A stretch of DNA of 63,769 nucleotides, counting the filler, from Folioceros fuciformis (lineage: Eukaryota), in NCBI GenBank assembly GCA_049999805.1. It is 6 parts of 6 records of this genome, joined end to end, with 100 filler letters (N's around TTAATTAATTAA, not from the genome) between each part and the next. Parts side by side here need not be neighbours in the genome. Positions count along the whole stretch, not along the records: positions 1 to 31,229 come from JBNGIO010001855.1; 5 more parts are not named here. One strand, 5' to 3'. Below the pieces are notes generated by a model. That model saw only the letters and a list, made by a program, of their open reading frames with translations, was not told the origin of the DNA and did not search any database. Below are positions 5,052-31,329 of the stretch, one piece after another (the first letter of the stretch is position 1; each line of letters opens with the position of its first letter). The position numbers were made by a program, and so were the translations under genes.

Positions 5052-8000
5052 ATGTCGTCCCGATTCTGGACTCACGAGGTATGTTAGGGTCACAGCAGAG
5101 CTCCCTCTCATGTTTTGTTCCTGAATGGAAGGCCCTGTATGGAGGACAGTGTGGAGCTGCGCTCTGTTTGTGGCCTGGGGTTTAGGTGTGTGCGGTGGAA
5201 TTAGGTCTTGTACATAGGAGGGTTTATAACGGGGGATTGGTGGACGCTCATTTTCAGCGTTTCACGGATGTCACCCTGATCTGCTGTCCGTGTGGGCTTG
5301 GATCTGAGGACAGAAGTGGGATGGCTTGCCCTTCTGAATTTCCAAGCTTGGCTTCATTTCGCTGGTTTGACTTGTCTCTGGATGTGAGGTGCTACAGAGC
5401 GATGACAGTGAAGGTGAAGAGGAGGAGAGCGAGGTCGAGGAGGAGGTTGGACCCGGTGGCGATGGAGGCCAGGGGCCAGCTTCCAAGTACATCCAAGGTT
5501 TCGAGGGTGACAGTGAGGATTCGGAGGACCTGCGGAGAGTTGTTCGATCTACCAAGGATAAAAGGTTCGACGAAATGGCCACCACGGTTGAGCAGATGAA
5601 GAATCACATGAAGATCAACGACTGGGTCAGTTTGCAGGAGAGCTTCGAGAAGCTCAACAAGCAGCTGGAGAAGGTGCTTCGGATAACGGAAACGGACATT
5701 GTGCCCCGCCTCTACATCAAGGCTCTTGTACTGTTGGAAGACTTTCTCTTGCAGGCGTTGGCGAATAAAGATGCTAAGAAGAAAATGAGTGCCAGTAACT
5801 CCAAGGCTCTCAACTACATGAAGCAGAAGCTGAAGAAAAACAACAAGCTGTATGAGGTTCAGATTGCTAATTTGAGGGCCAACCCGGAATCTGAAGATGA
5901 GCAGGAGCAAGATGATGAGGATGAGGACGAGGACCTGGAGAACTATAGTGAGGAGGAACCTGCTCAGATTGCTGGTGGATTGGATTCTGAGGAGGAGGGG
6001 GAAGATGCAGACGAGGATGGTGAGTGGGAAAAACAGAAAGGGAAGAAGGAAAGGCTGAATGATAAGAGGTTCAACAAGGATCCTAGTGAGATCACATGGG
6101 ATATGGTGGATAAGAAGCTCAAGGAGATCATTGCTGCTCGAGGTAGGAAAGGAACTGACAGGGCTGAACAAGTTGAGCAGCTTGCCTACCTTTCACGAGT
6201 GGCTAAAACGCCTGCGCAAAAGCTTGAGGTGATGGTGCACGTTGTCTCAGCGCAGTTTGATGTGAACCCGAGCCTCAATACGCACATGCCCATTTCGGTC
6301 TGGAAAAAGTGTGTTCAGAATGTGCTGGTCATTCTGGATATTCTTCATCAGTACCGGAACATCACCATGGATGAGGCTCCCGAGCTTGAAGCAGAGAACG
6401 ACACACAGAAGGCTGCGGATTACGATGGTCCCATCCACGTTTGGGGGAATGTTGTAGCATTTCTGGAGCGCATCGATGATGAGCTTTTCAAGAGCTTGCA
6501 GTGTATAGATCCACATACGAAGGAGTACGTGGAAAGGCTGAGAGATGAACCTCTGTTTATGGTGCTTGCCCAGAATGTGCAAGCATATGTTGAGCACATT
6601 GGTGACTTGAAAGCAGCTTCAAGGGTTGCTCTAAGGCGGGTTGAGCATATTTATTACAAGCCGCAGGAGATCTACGAGGCAATGAGAAAGCTTGCTGAGG
6701 CCCAAGACCACGTGGACACTGCAGCCACTGACATTGAAGTGGCCGATGGCGAGGAAGAGGATGAAGGGGTAGCTCCCTCTGGAGAAGCAAGGGTAGCTGG
6801 AGATTCCAAGCCAGCAGCTGAGTCACGAGGTCCGACGTCTTTTGTACCCACTCCAGAACTTGTCTCGCGAAGACCAGTCTTCCCTGAAAACAGTAGAACT
6901 ATCATGGATCAGCTGCTTGGAATAATATACAAGCATGGGGAAGAGCGCACTAAAGCTAGGGCCATGCTGTGTGACATATACCACCATGCGATTTCAGAGG
7001 AGTTCCACACTTCTAGAGATTTGCTGTTGATGAGCCATCTCCAGGACAGCGTGCAGCAGATGGACATTTCTACTCAGATTCTCTTCAATCGTGCCATGGC
7101 GCAGCTGGGCCTCTGTGCTTTTCGCACCTCGCTGATAAACGATGCGCACAGCTGTCTTTCGGAGCTATATGCTGGTGGCCGGGTCAAAGAATTGTTGGCA
7201 CAGGGTGTTTCGCAAAGCAGATATCACGAGAAGAACCCAGAGCAGGTAGACAGCGTAACCTATCATGTGTTTGTGGATGTTTGAGTATATTGTAGCGTTA
7301 TGCTCTCATGAATCTGATTAAAAATGTTCTGTGCTGAACTTTTATATACTCAGGAGAAGCTTGAGCGCAGGAGGCAGATGCCCTTCCACATGCACATCAA
7401 CCTGGAACTACTGGAAGCTGTTCACCTCATCTGCGCCATGCTTCTTGAAGTTCCCAACATGGCTGCCAATGCTCACGACGTGAAGAGAAAGGTTCTCAGC
7501 AAGCCGTTCCGGCGTCTGTTGGACATAAATGAAAGGCAGACATTTACAGGCCCGCCTGAGAATGTGAGGGACCATGTCATGGCAGCTACAAGGGCTTTGG
7601 CGAAGGGGAATTGGCAAAAGGCAGTCGAGGTTGTGGATTGTTTGGATGTCTGGAAGATGCTTCCCAAGCGCGAGTTCGTCCTTAACATGTTGAAGAGCAA
7701 GATCCAAGAGGAAGGACTGCGGACTTACTTGTTCACATTCTGTCCGTGCTACGATTCACTCAGCTTGGAGCAGTTGACAACCATCTTTGACCTCCCTGAG
7801 CCTCTGGTTCACAGTGTTATCAGCAAGATGATGATTGCAGAGGAGCTGCATGCCAGCTGGGATCAGCCTACAAAAACAATTGTGACCCACAATGTGGAGC
7901 CTACCAGGCTTCAAGCTTTGGCTGCACAGTTCGCGGAGAAGCTTACAGTTCTTGTGGACAGCAATGAGAGAGCATTTGATGCTCGCACAGGGGGAGGTGG

Positions 8001-8454
8001 TGACAATTTGGGAGGCAGGAGAAAGGAGGGGGCCCAAGGAGATTATGCTGGTGCCACCTCTGGCAGGCGTGGAGGAGAGTTTTCTGGAGGAGGTCAAGGC
8101 AGACGTCCGGGAGAGTTTTCAGGCGGCGCATTTGGGGATAGGGGAGGATCTGCAGGAGGGGCAGGAGGACGTGGAAACTATGGTGGAGGAAGAGCTGGTG
8201 GAAACCAAAACCGCTCCCAATCTGGAACAGGTGCGGCAGGGGGCTTTTACAGGGATCAGCGTAACTCACAGCAAGGTGCTCGGGGTGTGAGCAACTTTTC
8301 ATCAGGATATCAGAGCACGCGGTATCAGGATGCTTACAGTAGTCTGGGTAGATACCAGAGTGCACCCGTGTCCTCAGCTGCTGCAGCCAGAGGAGCCACA
8401 GCGGATGCCGGTGGCCGCATGGTGAGCCTGACGAGGACAGGGAGTCGATTCTGA
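5052..8454 (+). CDS. eIF3c: Eukaryotic translation initiation factor 3 subunit C
   Basis: Exons 5052-5078 (MSSRFWTHE), ~5398-7245 and 7354-8454. Motifs [31 protein letters not shown] and a PCI domain ending ASWDQPT, followed by a Gly/Arg-rich tail. Confidence 0.96.
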
Positions 8455-12949: not shown

Positions 12950-13469
12950 GATAATAAGATGCAGAGCCAAGGAGCTTAGGCTCGGCTTTCGTAGCTTCCG
13001 CTTCACAGTGACTGAAGGGAAAGTGTCAAGGCCACCTGAACACTGTAAGCCGTCAATGGCGTCTGGACTATTGGGAATAAGTAAATTGAATTAATGCCTG
13101 TCGCGGTGTCTAAATTCCAAAAAATGCGTACTGCTTAAATAGTAATAAAGTGATTGCGCCTCCTTCGAATTTGCGTCACCTGCGCTGCACGCGGGCGAAT
13201 AGTTAAACCTCTGAAGGCAGTCACACAACTGAAGAGAGTTATGGACGTCAAAGTCGTTGAGCGAAGGGAAACTGCCGTTCTCAAAGAGAAGAGACACACC
13301 TGTTCCGAGATCCTAGTTTCCTTCAACCCCTTCTGCTGGTCCTGGTAGGAATCCCCCACGAATGTGCCTACGCCTTCCTAAACACGACAATATGGAACAC
13401 TGAAGCGTAAGGAAAATTCTTGGGCCCTTCCTGGCTTTAGTGAATGAGGACATACCAGTGACTTGCGAA

Positions 13470-15514
13470 TCACCACCAGAACCCACACGTTATCAAAGCT
13501 AGAAATGCCAGCATTGTCAACGTCGCTCTCTCGATACCACTTGCACCACCTGTAACACAAATTCATGAGAAACTTCAACTGACAAAAAAAACGTTCAAAA
13601 GGCAGAAGTACAGAGATTGTAATTGATCCTTCAGATGAGATGAGTTGCGTGGCTTCACTGGAGATGTAGTCCAGATCGGAGGCCTGGAGAATATTAGCAT
13701 TTAGCTGTTGAATGCTGCTCGACACGTTTGCAGATAAACCCAGGTACTCCTTTGTGAGCTGGTCCACGACGGCTATTCCCTCAGCGCTGCAAACAAAATC
13801 TCTACTATTAGTTTCAATAGAGTTACTATGAGATTCTCGCAGAGAGTGTGGACCTAAGCATCCTTTTGGAACTTAGAATACCTCGCAGATAAAAGAATAT
13901 CGTTGGAGTTGTTCCCGCTGAAAAGTGCTACAATCCAATTTCTGGCATTGAACGACAAGGTGTGCACAATAGAAATCTTTTTCGCTACCGAGATGGAGTT
14001 AGGCACCATGATTGTGTTTGCTGCCACTGAGCCTAACCTGGAGAAGAGAGGTTGTAAGTCAAGGACGAATTGGCTTCGCAAAGTTCGTATCTGTAAGGAC
14101 CACGGCCACAACATTGGAGCCCTATTTTCCTGATGGAAGACAAGCCTTACGTGCAAGTTGAACGATCATCATTGATTGGTCTACACCCGCCCGTTGGACA
14201 TAAATACCTGAAATGCAAATTTGTGAGCGGCCACTACTATTCTCCCTACCCACGGATCACAGCCTAAAGACAGCTCTCGACCTAGGAACTACGAAACGAG
14301 CAACAGACATGAGCAGTCTTCGTGTCTGGAAACCTCAAGTGACGGCAGTGCAGTAAGATAGCTTACATGAAGTCCGATAAAGGCTTAACGGACCACTGTT
14401 GAGCAAGAAAGCCGTCTTTTGCGAACAGTTGTGCAGTGCCCGACCTCAAGAAAGCAATGTCTCCTTTCCCTTCCACCAGACATCGGAAAGCACCCTTGTA
14501 TCCGGCATATTCGCTACTCGAATCACACGTCACACCAGCAGCACCACTGCTGTTGCAGGCAGAGCAAATTCCTCGACCATTGTCAGAAGGTGCACAACTC
14601 TGAGAAAAAAAATTCGTAATGACCTTCTGATCGTTGAGCGGAAAGTTCGCAGGTATATTTCCCATCCGCGCGCTGAGCAGGAAGTTCACCGCATAGTTCC
14701 AACTGGCCGCAGACTGATAGCTAGCATGGCAGGACTTCAAGCCACGGAAATCTTTGATGCTCAGTGTGGGCTTCTTATCACACATTTGACTGTTAACGAC
14801 CATGAGAGCATCATACGACTGCTGGTGGTAGCAATATTCCTCGGCCATAAGGGACTTCATGGAATAGTTCATGAGTGCAATGTAAGCCAAGCCTGCATCC
14901 AACGAAACCAGATCTGCTTCTCCGCTACGTATGGCATCCAAACAAGCTATCTTGCTGTCTCTTCGAACACTGAGAAGACGCAGCGGCGCCTGTCAGAGCG
15001 GCCATTATCTACTGCAGCAATCCGCGCAAACACGGGGTGAGTGTGGCGAGGATCGTACCAGCTCCATTTCGACCGGTCCTCAGGAGATAAGAGGGACACA
15101 AGGTTGGTGCAGATCGCTGCTTCTTCAGGAAGTGCACACCAGGTGATAGTCTGCGGCTCCCCATCATCATCTGACGGTGCCCCCGAGGGAGGCTCCTGCG
15201 GCGGAAACCCTTCTGGATCTCCAGCTTCAGGTTCTGGAGACGGCGTCAACGCAGGAGGAGCAGGAGGGGAACCCGGATCGGGAAGCGGAGAAGGCGACGG
15301 ACTTGGTTCGAACTGGGCTACCACCGCATCTGCATGAAAGAAGCAAAAATTGGCGCATTGATCAAGCTATGACATCGCAGCCTGATCCCAAAGTTGAGCG
15401 AGCTCGGAAATGTGAATGCAAGAGCTCAAACTATACTGCCTGCTTACCTCGACGTATCAGATTAACAAACACAAGAGACAGCAACAGGACGGCATGCCCC
15501 GTCCTCGTCGCCAT
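13470..15514 (-). CDS. Transferrin-like protein: single lobe, signal peptide, Pro-rich linker, probable GPI signal (453 aa in my model)
   Basis: Exons 15514-15448, 15329-15059, 14969-14367, 14207-14151, 14037-13882, 13786-13659 and 13549-13470 total 1362 nt in frame, all introns GT-AG. Transferrin motifs in order: ITWCA, WSCVRRDSKIACLDAIRSGEADLVSLDAG, SYDALMVV, RGLKSCH, FFSQSCAP, EYAGYKGAFRCLVEGKGDIAF, YLCPTG, CTLGSVAANTIMV. The last splice junction is the least certain. Confidence 0.88.
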
Positions 15515-16142
15515 AACTCGACGGAGCTCGCACCTTCGAGCCTAGAAGGCGAGTCCGCACAGGAAGGGGCCCCGATGCCCCAACTTCGAACGCCCCGCGA
15601 CCAACGTTTTCCTCAGGGCCCAAAAGTTCGTGAACTTCCTCGAAAATCTTAGGAAAAAAAAAAACACTTTAGTTACAGAGCCACGGCTTGGGATAGGCGC
15701 CGCGCTGGTCCCACAAATGTCAATGTATTCATGTCTCGATCGTCTAATGGACCCTGCTGTCTAAGCTCCCACCGAGCGGGCTTTCTGTCACATCTAGTAA
15801 GCACTTCGCAGTTCTGGAGTAGTTCCTCACCTCCCGGCGATCTTCCACACCACGGAATGCAAGGCCTCTGCATTCTGCAAAGACACGTTATTTCTTGGAG
15901 AGAAGTTTGAATCTTCTCAGATGATGAATGGGCGGCACCTGCTGAGCTAGGCACCAACGGAAGAAGCTTGGCGTAGCTGGACGGCCGTTTCCTGGAATGT
16001 GAAATCGGAGTCACAGCTTACGATCTTGTTTTCATCACGTTTGCTGTGATCGTGGACCCCGCAGGTATGGGACACCGGGTTTCGTTGCCTCAGCTGCAAA
16101 GCTTCTGATGCAAGCTTCCCTAACTTGTGTCTCCACTACCAC

Positions 16143-23857: not shown

Positions 23858-24304
23858 CTTGAGTCAAGTTGGATGTGTTCCTGCCCGCGAAGTCTCCCTC
23901 TGTCACCATAATCCCTGCCTTTTAACAGGTCCGAGTATTGGCTCCCTAATGCGGTCGCAAGAAACTGGTTCCGGCGCCGCATGAAAGCAACGTCCGAGTC
24001 CCAACGAGTCCCACGTCCGGACAATGAGCACACCAGCAGCTCACTATTTTTCCTTGCGACGCTCCGTGATGCACAGGAAGGCAGCAGCAAGCGATGCGGG
24101 GCTGGTCGCATCAAGCGTGGAGGATTCTGGTGGGTGGTAATCGCATATCAGCTCGCTTTCGTGCGCGCTAGCTTTTCCTTCGCCTTGCTGGTGGACATCA
24201 GCTTGGCATTTGGAGCCTGCTGGCACTGCAGGGAAGGAGAACGTTCTGGTTCAGGGACGGGAACTGGATTGAATGCGTTCGCCTCAGATACCGATCCAGC
24301 ACAT

Positions 24305-25357
24305 ATGAGGACGGGCAGTATCTGCAGCAGCAGACTGGATTGCCGATGTCAGCCCCGAAGGTTTCTGCTGCGGGCTCTGTTGTGTGCGCTGGCCCTTGCT
24401 GCGATGCCTCTGCTTGTGGTGCTCTACGAGGGCTGTTGTGTAGCGGGTGAGGCAGCAATGGCGTGTACCCTCTGGAGCTTCAAAGCAGCAGGTGGTGAAC
24501 ACGCATCAGGAAGGCCGCATGAGCAGCTCTTTTCCGAGAAAGTGCTCGAACGGCAACAGGGAAGAACGTGGCCGAGCAAGTGCTGGAGAAGTAGAGTGGA
24601 AGATGCCTTTCATCATTGTCCGGTGAGCGATGAGAAGGCTTCTGCCATGCGGAATGCCGAGCCCTTAATTGTGGAAGAGCCTCTGAAGCCATGGATCACC
24701 CTTAAGAAGAACATCCAGAATGTTGTCTACCTCCCCACACTTCAGGATCTCACTCGCTACACCAGGCATGTGTATGTCGACATAGGGGCCAGGAATTATG
24801 GGTCTAGCATAGGCAGCTGGTTCAAGAAGGTGTACCCGAAGCAAGGTCAGGCGTTCCAGATCTTCGCCATAGAGGCAGACAGGAAGTTCCGGAGAGGGTA
24901 TGCTGGCCATTCTGATGTGCACTTCCTTCCGTATGCAGCATGGACTAGAAACGAGACTCTGTTCTTTGGGACCGAAAAGGATGAACGCGGGGGTATGGGC
25001 CGGATTCAAAGCAATATCCGGGAGGTGGGAAAGCGGACTATCTCAAGCTCTCAAGGGGAAAACTACATTAGAGTGAAAGGACTGGACATAGCAGACTGGT
25101 TGCACCAGAGCGTGTCAAGAGATGACTTTTTGGTAGTGAAGATGGACGTGGAGGGTGCAGAGTTCGACCTCCTCCCCAAGCTGTTTGACACAGGGACCAT
25201 CTGCCTCATCGACGAGCTCTTCCTGGAATGCCACTACAATCGCTGGCAAAGGTGCTGTCCTGAGCGGACCACCAAGTTCAACAAGACTTACCAAGATTGC
25301 TTAGCTCTGTTCCAAGCTTTGCGCCGCAATGGTGTCCTTGTCCACCAATGGTGGTAG
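24305..25357 (+). CDS. Membrane-anchored SAM-dependent methyltransferase (FkbM-like C-terminal domain, At5g01710-type)
   Basis: Intronless. N-terminal TM helix, AEPLIVEEPLKPWITLK, VYVDIGARNYGSSIGSWF, VVKMDVEGAEFDLLP, LIDELFLECHYNRWQRCCP and terminal GVLVHQWW*. The ORF is open from 23981; ATG 24305 is preferred. Confidence 0.88.
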   Translation: MRTGSICSSRLDCRCQPRRFLLRALLCALALAAMPLLVVLYEGCCVAGEAAMACTLWSFKAAGGEHASGRPHEQLFSEKVLERQQGRTWPSKCWRSRVEDAFHHCPVSDEKASAMRNAEPLIVEEPLKPWITLKKNIQNVVYLPTLQDLTRYTRHVYVDIGARNYGSSIGSWFKKVYPKQGQAFQIFAIEADRKFRRGYAGHSDVHFLPYAAWTRNETLFFGTEKDERGGMGRIQSNIREVGKRTISSSQGENYIRVKGLDIADWLHQSVSRDDFLVVKMDVEGAEFDLLPKLFDTGTICLIDELFLECHYNRWQRCCPERTTKFNKTYQDCLALFQALRRNGVLVHQWW

Positions 25358-25960: not shown

Positions 25961-26707
25961 TCACGCCCTGAAAAGCGCCGTTCCGATTCGGGAAAACCCC
26001 GCCTCATGGGAGCTCGACGAGATACCTGATCCTAAACGCTGAAAATCGGTGCACACCGCAGGCTTGGGCTTGGGACCTTGGTAAGCTTCGCAAACGAATC
26101 TGGCCACGTCCAAGTACTCGTCAAGCAGAGGTGTCCCGTTCACCAGCACCCAGGGCACATAGCGGTGAGGCGGATTCAAGCTGTCCGTCTCCTGCGCACA
26201 TTGCAGCTCCAACTGCGCTCCCAAAGGTCCCAGAAAGCACTCTACCAGAGGACGAAGGTCCAGACCGGACGGCTCCACGCAGCTGGTCCACTGCTCGTAG
26301 GCCACCGCGCCGTCCAGAGCCTCCAAGCAGAAGACGAAGGGAAACCACTGGAACACGTCCGGCCACAGGCTGATGGCGCAGGTCTGGATCACGTTCAAGC
26401 GACACTCGTCCTCCCCGTGCTGGCAGATCATGGAGCCATCATCGTAGATATGCGCGTTGCCGTAAGGGATGATCCGCAGATCCACGACGTCTATGAGGCC
26501 GTTCTCGAAGAATTTGCTCAGGTAGTTCACGATGAAGTTTCTGCAGTAAGGGCAGAGGGACTCCGAATACATCTCCACCAAAACCTTGCCGTCTCCTCCC
26601 GAGCTGTGTAGGACCGAGGCTTCAGAAACCGCGGACGCCAGTTGCGCAGTAGCAAGAAGGAGGAATAGCAGAATCTGGCGGGATTCGACCCGCACCGCCA
26701 TCGCCAT
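25961..26707 (-). CDS. GILT: Gamma-interferon-inducible lysosomal thiol reductase-like protein, intronless
   Basis: Signal peptide, YSESLCPYC (CxxC), PYGNA, CQHGEDECRLN signature and YVPWVLVNG. Confidence 0.93.
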   Translation of the reverse strand: MAMAVRVESRQILLFLLLATAQLASAVSEASVLHSSGGDGKVLVEMYSESLCPYCRNFIVNYLSKFFENGLIDVVDLRIIPYGNAHIYDDGSMICQHGEDECRLNVIQTCAISLWPDVFQWFPFVFCLEALDGAVAYEQWTSCVEPSGLDLRPLVECFLGPLGAQLELQCAQETDSLNPPHRYVPWVLVNGTPLLDEYLDVARFVCEAYQGPKPKPAVCTDFQRLGSGISSSSHEAGFSRIGTALFRA

Positions 26708-29015
26708 CAGAGCTGGCGAATGTGACGGACGGACGGCTGGTAACTCTGGGCCCCGTCTGGTTATCATGTACACTTGGAGGACAGAGTTGTGCAAGCTGAA
26801 GTCCAAATTGGACGAATGAGGATGTACACAGAGGAACGCAGACCTACCACAAAGAAGGTGGAGGAACGACGGGGGTGAAGGGCCGTGAAAGAGCTAGAGG
26901 AAAACCGTAGCATGTAAAACTTTGCACATTTAAATGAGTGTTGCATTTCGTAATAATAAACTTTGGAGCTGATGGAAACTAACATGAAATTCACAAGAGT
27001 AGAGCTTGAAAGACGGGAACTAAGGTGAGGATTCTTCACTCCAAGATAAGTGGATCTAAGGTGGGGATTCTTCGCTGAGGTGCGTTTTGTCCGGATGGGT
27101 CTTTCAAAAGTAGAATCCTTGCACATTCTTGGGGTTTATGTAGAACAGCTTACGTCCATCTTAGATGTTATTTTACACAGATTTTTAGGAATTATGCCCA
27201 TAGCTCCATGTGTCTAAAGAGCAAAGGGATGAAAACATGCCGTCCTACAAGGGAGAATACTTATGGCTTTATGGCTTTAGTACTTGCACAACCCTCCACA
27301 GATCATGGAATCAACTACTCAAACCTATCCCTCTCTCTGAAAAAATAGGTCAACTCTAATTGAAACCCCATTGCACAAAGGATACGAACGCTCCCTCTGC
27401 GGAAGAAAAAACAAGCCCTAGAGAACGTGACATCTTGAGCTGCATCATGGGTACCAATGTGATGCCCCCCAATGGGACAATGTGCTATATGGTACTCTCT
27501 GTCGACAATGGCAATCCCACAACTATATGTAGAGAGAGAAAAAGCTAAGGGGTGGACCAAACATAATCGGAATATCATCACGACGGCGAAAGTTGCTAGT
27601 GCAATTTGAAACGCTTAGATGTAACGTCCAGCCAAGAGCCAACTCCTTTACCTTAACAAGAGCAAATATAGGCCTGAGAAAGTCTAGGGATGGATGAGTC
27701 CAAGAGAAGAGCTATTAGTGTCTGGCCATATGCTTTTCAAAGGGCGAGGCTTGAAGACCCCTCAACCCTTCTCTAGAAAAAGGAGGTCAAAGGGCTGAGG
27801 TCTCACAAGCCTCAAAAGGTGAAGGATCCCTCACTTGCCTATGAGACATATGTAAGGAAAACAACTCTTCTTAACACCTAAGATATAATATTCAAAAAGA
27901 GGACAATCCTTGAGCAAAAAATGAGAGGACAAAATTGCAGCCTTCCTCGATATACTTTGCCCAACTTCGAAGGCATCTAGTAAGGAAGCCTACTTCTGGA
28001 CCATATCACCAACGGCACACTCGAAGGGTGCCATGACATATGATATTCCCAGGCACTTCGTAACCTGATTGCCAAACTTTCTAAGACTTGAAAAAAATTA
28101 GAGAAGGTGCAACAATTCTAATAAGGTAACTTGGTTGTCGTGCAAAGCAAGATGAAAGAATACAAAATGCAATATGAGGGTCATTGATCTTCAAGATTTT
28201 TTTTTTTTGCCTTTGAGCAGTCTCGCAGAGCTCCATATTATTATGTTTTAGTAATGCCACAAGCTACCTGTGCTCTGCTGATGACTAGTAGTGTATATCG
28301 AGTCTTCTGGTCTATTGTACTACATACATGTATGTGCCGTTTTATACCATGTGTTGTATATGAGAATGAACGGATAATATTTTCGTGTGTATACCATGGC
28401 ATATACAAAATAGGAAGTATATAATGGTTTATACATGAACATAGTATATCGTCCATGTCATGTTGTACCACTAAGCATGGCACTCATGCATGGTTCATAA
28501 GTTAACAATACTCACACAATGCCACATTACACACATGCTCTATTACACAATTTTTGTCATTTCGATCTCATTAATTTTTTATTTGGAAGTGCTCTTTTTT
28601 ACTAAGGGTAGAAATACTTTTTTTTTACTAAAAGTTCATTTCCGATTATGCACATGTAACATATTTCTTCATCTCTTTTGACTCATTTTCATTTTGTAAA
28701 AATGAGGATAGCAAAGTTCTCATGTTGCTTATGTTCATCGTCATTATAAATTCTTCTTGCCACATTAATCTAATTAATAATATCTAGTTTTAGCTCAAAT
28801 AAATGTTAGTTTTTCTTAATATATTTTCTTGATATAACTCATAGTGTTATATATATTCTTGATACTTGAAGTGAAAATTGGTTCAATACAAGGTTCAAGG
28901 ATAGGTGGTCAATCAGGTGCTCTTTTTGCCGCAAATTGAGAAATGGTAAGAACCTATATCTTCACCTATGTGCTAAACAAACAAAGTGTTTGTCAAATTT
29001 GGGTTTTGGGTTCAT

Positions 29016-31229: not shown

Positions 31230-31329
31230 NNNNNNNNNNNNNNNNNNNNNNNNNNNNNNNNNNNNNNNNNNNNTTAATTAATTAANNNNNNNNNNNNNNN
31301 NNNNNNNNNNNNNNNNNNNNNNNNNNNNN
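31230..31329. other. Artificial contig-join linker
   Basis: N44-TTAATTAATTAA-N44, with stops in all six frames. Confidence 0.97.

Follow-up and report, generated by a model that had tools for sequence, protein, structure and literature searches.

We have analysed a gene of Folioceros fuciformis that lies on the minus strand, at positions 15514 to 13470, of a 63,769-nucleotide (nt) stretch of DNA ('the window'), and we find that it encodes a protein with a single transferrin lobe in which three of the six residues of the canonical iron and anion site have been replaced. The reading towards which we lean, as somewhat probable, is that the product is a glycosylphosphatidylinositol (GPI)-anchored, glycosylated, hinge-closing binding protein of the cell surface, and that its ligand is something other than the classical iron-carbonate pair. 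Comparison with homologues argues that this is an ancient, real gene of the plant lineage and that its altered pocket is kept under selection.

Iron uptake by land plants is explained within a framework of reduction-based and phytosiderophore-based routes. A conserved surface relative of transferrin suggests a third iron route, and the idea is tempered by the apparent loss of the iron-carbonate residues before land plants arose. Marchantia, a tractable liverwort, carries an orthologue of this probable GPI-anchored binding protein, whose family is a well-defined, testable orphan.

Transferrin fold and the altered iron and anion site

Exon 3 alone matches the Pfam Transferrin profile (PF00405) with an E-value of 1.6e-32 and a score of 113.5 bits (cut-off 20.3) over profile positions 32-209 of 328; exon 2 alone gives no Pfam match. 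Searched against the PDB, exon 3 retrieves 94 distinct transferrin-family sequences at E<=1e-10, the best of them being camel lactoferrin (2.3e-45) and human melanotransferrin (6xr0; 1e-43), and the matches include non-iron members of the family with solved structures, namely inhibitor of carbonic anhydrase and saxiphilin. A search of the ESM Atlas returned animal transferrin clusters only. Aligned with the N-lobe of a primate serotransferrin, the window protein has 94 identical residues in 316 aligned columns; of the 16 columns that hold Cys in the primate lobe, 12 hold Cys in the window protein too, which has extra, plant-specific cysteines besides. Its nearest relative is the transcript product P0001 of the hornwort Nothoceros aenigmaticus (63.5% identity over 356 amino acids), and the structure model was made for this hornwort orthologue in place of the window protein. 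A P0001 model built with 11 aligned sequences was unusable (predicted local distance difference test, pLDDT, of 43.2). The AlphaFold model obtained on repeating with 68 sequences has a mean pLDDT of 84.5, with values above 90 in the lobe and below 50 in the Pro-rich region and the segment that precedes the C-terminal tail. In a Foldseek comparison this model matches the 329-residue human N-lobe with a template-modelling (TM) score of 0.81, normalised to the target. The first-pass annotation of this DNA had proposed a single complete transferrin lobe, and the profile match, the hornwort model and the 316-column alignment agree with it. We conclude, as far as the model of the orthologue can be carried over, that the lobe is a complete two-subdomain, hinge-closing module with the type II fold of periplasmic binding proteins.

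In human N-lobe numbering, the iron ligands are Asp63, Tyr95, Tyr188 and His249, and the carbonate residues are Thr120 and Arg124. We located the corresponding positions via the primate protein P0072 and tabulated them for 43 plant proteins, comprising the window protein and the 42 homologues of at least 380 amino acids (3 fragments among 45 homologues having been dropped), and for 16 animal lobes in the same alignment:

Asp63 position: window Asp137; plants, Asp 21, Glu 22; animal lobes, Asp 16
Tyr95 position: window Tyr165; plants, Tyr 37, Phe 6; animal lobes, Tyr 16
Thr120 position: window Ala195; plants, Gly 28, Ala 8, Pro 6, Ser 1, Thr 0; animal lobes, Thr 16
Arg124 position: window Ser199; plants, Thr 39, Ser 2, Phe 1, Ile 1, Arg/Lys 0; animal lobes, Arg/Lys 14
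Tyr188 position: window Tyr270; plants, His 22, Tyr 11, Asp 6, Glu 3, Phe 1; animal lobes, Tyr 14
His249 position: window Asn340; plants, Asn 43; animal lobes, His 14

The window protein keeps three of the six canonical positions (Asp, Tyr, Tyr) and has Asn, Ala and Ser in place of His, Thr and Arg. It departs from a strict iron transferrin both in the four-ligand set, which reads Asp, Tyr, Tyr, Asn, and in the anion pair Thr120/Arg124. The classical iron-carbonate mechanism is unlikely for the family, because every one of the 43 plant proteins has Asn for His and has lost both the Thr and the Arg that would bind the anion, and classical Fe3+/carbonate binding by the window protein itself is, on its residues, unlikely. 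The iron capture proposed in the first-pass annotation thus finds no support, three of the six canonical iron and anion residues being missing. Most angiosperm members have His, Asp or Glu at the Tyr188 position, where Phe and Pro are also seen in single members, and 41 of the 43 plant proteins have Tyr at the position of Leu122. The invariant Asn (43/43), together with the near-invariant Tyr at 122 (41/43) and Thr at 124 (39/43), argues that the cleft is still under selection.

The same state is found outside the land plants. Mesotaenium, Coleochaete, Marchantia and three further representatives all have Asn at the His249 position (6/6), and none has Thr or Arg/Lys at the anion positions. Among the seven lobes of the chlorophyte Bryopsis, six have Thr, all have Lys/Arg and six have His; among the four of Caulerpa, all have Thr, three have Lys/Arg and two have His. 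These residue patterns indicate that the altered site of the streptophyte clade is old and predates land plants. In a preprint on Dunaliella (10.1101/2023.02.09.527888), transferrin domains are classed by these same residues, and the diverged domains are described as being without iron-responsive expression; by that yardstick the window lobe is 'diverged'.

Topology, descent and distribution

The window protein begins with a hydrophobic stretch at residues 8-20, with a 10-residue hydropathy peak of 3.16 at residue 8 and a V-x-A motif before Gln28, and we read it, by hydropathy and not by a trained predictor, as the secretory leader that had been called earlier. A hydrophobic N-terminal leader is present in 39 of the 43 family members. 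From Q28 to the WCA motif at the start of the lobe run 57 residues, of which 20 are Pro, with five SP, two AP and one TP dipeptides; over a wider 66-residue stretch, Pro, Ser, Ala and Thr make up 55%. By this Pro/Ala/Ser/Thr content and its SP, AP and TP dipeptides, the region resembles an arabinogalactan-protein glycomodule, for which its acidity (6 Glu and 5 Asp in the 57 residues) is atypical. At the other end, a run of small residues (S427-G432) and a polar spacer (433-437) are followed by a hydrophobic stretch, L438-W453, that reaches the last residue without a charged tail. This arrangement is probably a GPI-attachment signal, as its hydropathy and composition suggest, and a comparable hydrophobic tail, scored by a simple rule of our own and not by a trained predictor, is found in 30 of the 43 family members, with 3 more borderline.

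The first-pass annotation had described a Pro/Ser-rich stalk tethering the lobe to the cell, followed after the lobe by a short tail. The Pro/Ser-rich peptide is there, but it lies at the free, membrane-distal N-terminal end of the mature protein and so cannot be what attaches the lobe to the cell; the tail is also there, but as a hydrophobic signal of GPI type. Its broader description, a surface-located relative of transferrin, holds up as a reading, predicted from the leader and the GPI-type tail.

Descent was assessed in three quick, unrooted maximum-likelihood trees containing the window protein with 23, 23 and 14 of the 42 full-length plant homologues. In all three, embryophytes form one clade (99-100 in the Shimodaira-Hasegawa-like approximate likelihood-ratio test, SH-aLRT), within which the window protein is sister to Nothoceros (SH-aLRT 97-100). 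The first tree places the 24 plant rows in one clade (SH-aLRT 99), with the plant stem joined to two arachnid N-lobes, a placement that we flag as a meeting of long branches. In the tree without arachnids the plants (SH-aLRT 100) stand opposite all deuterostome lobes and outside the melanotransferrins. In the tree with algae the embryophytes (99) are sister to Mesotaenium and one relative (93), with Coleochaete and Chara outside them (100); the next sister group comprises Spirogloea, P0231, the fern protein P0233 and P0252 (96), and chlorophyte lobes and animals lie on the other side. The branching order within plants is bryophytes, ferns, gymnosperms, magnoliids and eudicots. With algal, land-plant and animal lobes included, the embryophyte clade thus falls within streptophytes and follows the species phylogeny. 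Horizontal transfer from animals, with melanotransferrins as the best animal matches, was considered and rejected, since the plant clade is never nested in animals and mirrors the phylogeny of plants and streptophyte algae. We conclude that the trees argue for vertical descent from streptophyte algae and not for recent transfer from animals.

A search with exon 3 for longer proteins gave 26 matches at E<=1e-5 among 1000 candidates, and a profile of 11 plant members gave 94 matches at E<=1e-20 among 8000 candidates. An exhaustive profile search of 1.84 billion representatives gave 1100 matches at E<=0.001, 205 of them at E<=1e-30, and 20 matches of this last search were looked up for names. Members occur in liverworts (Calypogeia, Riccia and Marchantia polymorpha, the last as Mp6g17580 / MARPO_0145s0028, P0141), ferns (Ceratopteris, Adiantum, Psilotum, Pteridium), gymnosperms (Ginkgo, Cryptomeria, Taxus) and, among early-branching angiosperm groups, Magnolia, Aristolochia and Acorus (fragments only). 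Eudicot members come from Papaver, Macleaya, Nelumbo, Protea, Macadamia, Telopea, Tetracentron, Juglans, Glycine, Medicago, Acer, Xanthoceras, Citrus, Pistacia, Melia, Ricinus, Camellia, Malania and Diplodiscus. Matches in streptophyte algae are from Mesotaenium, Coleochaete, Chara and Spirogloea, and those in chlorophytes from Bryopsis (seven lobes) and Caulerpa (four lobes); a second fern protein, P0233 of Adiantum nelumboides, was also found. Among the named matches there is none from mosses, lycophytes, grasses, Brassicaceae or Solanaceae, which is not proof of absence, and the exact window protein is not in the protein collection that was searched.

Seed-plant members are annotated as 'serotransferrin-like', 'lactotransferrin' or 'Transferrin family'. 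The earlier suggestion of a system of non-seed plants is accordingly too narrow, the family being annotated in gymnosperms and in many angiosperms, for example Glycine, Medicago, Citrus, Juglans, Ricinus and Papaver, and the patchy land-plant distribution that accompanied that suggestion is what we see among the named matches. As had also been supposed, the plant family is functionally uncharacterised: our literature search found no functional study of it and no mention of the Marchantia gene identifiers. A survey of the family has been published (Bai et al. 2016, Comp Biochem Physiol D 17:1-8; cited in PMC8401529 and PMC9343624), and some of the residue and distribution points given here may already be in print, in that survey or in the supplements of the Dunaliella preprint. 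The window gene adds a member to this annotated but functionally uncharacterised family.

Gene structure, transcript and genomic surroundings

The gene comprises seven coding exons on the minus strand, from 15514 to 13470, which we spliced by eye into a coding sequence of 1362 nt and a protein of 453 amino acids; all six coding introns have GT..AG ends. The features of the transcript are as follows, with UTR denoting untranslated region:

15648..15830, minus strand: 5'UTR intron, 183 nt, GT..AG; upstream non-coding exon from ~15831; boundary set by hand from a loose end of the contig
15448..15514, minus strand: coding exon 1; start codon 15514-15512 and most of the hydrophobic secretory leader; joint 15448/15329 in the X1 contig
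15059..15329, minus strand: coding exon 2; end of the leader, 57-residue Pro/Ser/Glu/Asp-rich region and start of the lobe (WCA motif, C87, C96); both joints in the contig
14367..14969, minus strand: coding exon 3; core of the transferrin lobe (200 residues), with D137, Y165, A195, Y197, S199 and Y270; joints in the contig
14151..14207, minus strand: coding exon 4 (57 nt); Cys-rich loop of the hinge region; joints 14207/14367 and 14037/14151, within the stated shift of the cut
13882..14037, minus strand: coding exon 5; second crossing strand, with N340 (codon 14018-14016) at the His249 ligand position
13659..13786, minus strand: coding exon 6; C-terminal helices of the lobe; donor used at 13659 (AG/GTGAAG, cut at the slash); joint 13549/13659 in the contig
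13470..13549, minus strand: coding part of exon 7; run of small residues, polar spacer and 16 hydrophobic residues; stop codon TGA at 13472-13470
13185..13455, minus strand: 3'UTR; two introns (13455-13378, 78 nt; 13299-13185, 115 nt) flanking a 78-nt exon (13377-13300); GT..AG ends

The coordinates in the first-pass annotation are exact, running from the start codon at 15514 to the final base of the stop at 13470, and its seven-exon model is reproduced by one RNA-derived contig, from run X1, that is 100% identical to the window and bridges the six coding introns as modelled. This contig (7718 nt) aligns in 8 pieces with 0 differing letters, and its joints equal those of the model, so a spliced transcript is at hand. 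The transcript evidence consists of a single contig from a single run of a single study, and the RNA label of run X1 is a guess of the tool; we read X1 as complementary DNA because the contig is without introns. Run X1 contains 57% of the sampled words of the stretch, which is about the exonic share. We conclude that the gene is spliced and expressed.

Exon 1 extends upstream to ~15647 as 5'UTR, with an in-frame stop just upstream of the start codon, and the transcript has at least ten exons in total, seven of them coding. The joint of the 13455-13378 intron is in the contig; the 13299-13185 and 15830-15648 introns were fitted from loose ends of the contig, the latter from an end at 15649 that continues with letters matching 15833 onward. 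Boundaries of 15833-15650 for the 5'UTR intron were rejected, as they give no GT..AG ends, and so was an alternative gene model with an exon 6 donor at 13612, which breaks the frame, the contig using 13659. The second junction after the stop codon lies ~92 nt 3' of it; an intron junction more than 55 nt past the stop codon is a mark for nonsense-mediated decay in many eukaryotes. The contig extends ~4.3 kb beyond 13300, and a merger with a neighbouring transcript may account for this. Of the four runs aligned to the window, X2 and X7 gave no match and X3, from another organism, gave only a 47-base piece, in which 15604-15650 of the 5'UTR matches the end of a 2022-nt contig with 4 differences. 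The same small share (0.06-0.07) recurs in 19 runs of three organisms, and the 5'UTR piece may be a conserved or repeated element.

The genomic neighbours include a coiled-coil protein and the following genes:

5371-8451, plus strand: eIF3 subunit C (PF05470, E=6.8e-203, plus PCI)
23912-25354, plus strand: FkbM-type methyltransferase with DUF7870
25964-26893, minus strand: GILT thiol reductase

None of these neighbours (eIF3c, coiled-coil, FkbM/DUF7870, GILT) is iron-related, and the 63,769-nt window holds no second transferrin-like copy. Far from the gene, within 31230-61839, are five pairs of N runs, at 31230, 46521, 57261, 59414 and 61740; each of the ten runs is 44 N long.

Possible functions and comparison with known systems

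According to the reading we favour, the protein would enter the secretory pathway, would probably be O-glycosylated on its N-terminal Pro-rich, arabinogalactan-protein-like region, and would probably receive a GPI anchor at its C-terminal signal that holds it on the outer face of the plasma membrane. The classical Fe3+/carbonate site would have been remodelled before land plants arose (Asn for His; Thr and Arg lost) and the altered state held since. With Asn for the His ligand, and with Thr and Arg gone, the lobe most likely closes on a non-classical ligand, for instance a partner protein, or else a different metal or a small molecule to which Asp/Glu and Tyr would bind. Action would be at the interface of wall and membrane, as for other plant GPI-anchored chimeric glycoproteins.

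Several observations weigh against this reading. Ten of the 43 homologues have no hydrophobic tail; these may be truncated gene models, as several look to be, or the tail may not be universal. Signal peptide and GPI anchor are both called from hydropathy and composition alone, and the literature yielded no binding, localisation or glycosylation experiment for any family member. The AlphaFold model of P0001 is nearer to closed, iron-loaded structures (TM 0.62-0.65) than to open apo structures (TM 0.46-0.49), although AlphaFold models often come out closed. The window protein retains Asp137, Tyr165 and Tyr270, and Asp and Tyr are the strongest Fe3+ ligands. The PDB holds entries titled as human N-lobe mutants at the same positions (H249Q, H249E, R124A and D63E), and these mutants reportedly still bind iron, more weakly. 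Across the family, position 63 (Asp/Glu) and position 188 (His/Tyr/Asp/Glu in 42/43) vary almost only among metal-ligating residues, which makes a surviving metal site plausible.

Because the window protein keeps Asp and both Tyr, binding of iron in a non-classical manner stays a live rival. The protein would in that case be a surface-tethered apoplastic Fe3+ binder, serving uptake, sensing or withholding from microbes, with a modified site of Asp and two Tyr, perhaps joined by Tyr197, and without the classical carbonate; we regard this as possible, if doubtful. Beyond the metal-ligating character of positions 63 and 188, it would have precedents in the membrane-bound transferrins of Dunaliella, which act in iron uptake and are strongly induced by low iron (10.1101/2023.02.09.527888), and in animal melanotransferrin, which is likewise GPI-anchored (PMC2199996). 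Against it stand the change of His to Asn and the absence of Thr120 and Arg124 throughout the 43 plant proteins, the lack of a tyrosinate pair conserved family-wide (His, Asp or Glu for Tyr188 in most angiosperms; Phe for Tyr95 in 6/43) and the neighbour genes, which are not iron-related; in addition, the Dunaliella domains that lost these residues are reported to be without iron-responsive expression (10.1101/2023.02.09.527888). That the lobe binds no small ligand and belongs to a glycoprotein with a structural or signalling role where wall and membrane meet, its fold serving as scaffold or protein-binding surface as in the iron-less animal relatives, is unlikely. Inhibitor of carbonic anhydrase and saxiphilin show that such non-iron members occur among the PDB matches, and the Tyr188 position is variable to the point of admitting Phe and Pro. 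A leader, a Pro-rich glycomodule, a globular domain and a GPI-type tail make up the architecture of plant chimeric arabinogalactan proteins, and the architecture of the window protein matches it; but the constancy of Asn (43/43), of Tyr at the Leu122 position (41/43) and of Thr at the Arg124 position (39/43) points to a cleft site under selection. An artefact, or a decaying gene without a product, is very improbable: the RNA evidence is indeed one contig of one run with a guessed label, and an intron junction does lie more than 55 nt past the stop codon, but the seven exons, bounded by consensus splice sites, form one uninterrupted reading frame, the contig has every intron spliced out, and the protein shares 63.5% identity with the product of a hornwort transcript, with cysteines and motifs conserved.

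A more specific version of the favoured surface-binding reading, which we put forward as speculative and rather doubtful, is that the family is a lipid-anchored receptor with the transferrin fold, shared by streptophytes as far apart as Coleochaete, Chara and crop plants. Over half a billion years ago its pocket would have been turned into a site independent of carbonate (Asp/Glu, Tyr, His/Tyr and the invariant Asn) that binds a metal ion, or a small molecule derived from wall or soil, and reports it at the plasma membrane. Such a receptor could have gone unstudied because no member is named from Brassicaceae or grasses.

The closest known counterparts, P0001 of Nothoceros aenigmaticus and P0141 of Marchantia, share with the window protein the leader, the Pro-rich region, the one lobe and the hydrophobic C-terminal tail, and likewise have Asn at the His position and neither Thr120 nor Arg124. 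The window protein is nevertheless only 63.5% identical to the nearest member of the land-plant family, and it keeps the Tyr at 188 of bryophyte and fern members, whereas most angiosperms have His. Animal melanotransferrin resembles it in the transferrin fold (37% identity over exon 3 for caecilian melanotransferrin) and in its attachment, being GPI-anchored (PMC2199996) where the window protein is predicted to be lipid-anchored at the cell surface. It differs in having two lobes instead of one, and the melanotransferrins of Latimeria, caecilian and starfish, unlike the window protein, have the full ligand set in both lobes. Because it falls outside the plant clade in the trees, melanotransferrin is neither orthologue nor donor.

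The TTf/TFN proteins of Dunaliella, like the window family as predicted, are membrane-attached, cell-surface proteins of the green lineage with the transferrin fold. The preprint (10.1101/2023.02.09.527888) gives them 1-10 lobes and a predicted transmembrane helix, and reports iron uptake and strong low-iron induction for the membrane-bound forms. The chlorophytes in our alignment and tree set, which holds no Dunaliella sequence, are Bryopsis and Caulerpa, whose lobes mostly keep Thr, Lys/Arg and His and lie on the opposite side of the tree from the streptophyte clade. The proteins that carry these lobes, Bryopsis sp. P0134 (seven lobes) and Caulerpa lentillifera P0138 (four), are giant transferrins reminiscent of the multi-lobe Dunaliella proteins.

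A second streptophyte lineage, comprising Adiantum nelumboides P0233 and P0252 with Spirogloea, has the same layout of leader, Pro-rich region, one lobe and tail and is sister to the clade of the window protein (SH-aLRT 96). Unlike the window protein, P0233 and P0252 keep six of six canonical positions (Asp, Tyr, Thr, Arg, Tyr, His); judged by these residues, they may be true iron-binding plant transferrins, or they may be contamination. Having a canonical site, this sister lineage of ferns and algae can serve for comparison, and, if the receptor proposal is true, the canonical-site lineage of some ferns and algae and the clade of the window protein would form a before-and-after pair for the conversion of an iron carrier.

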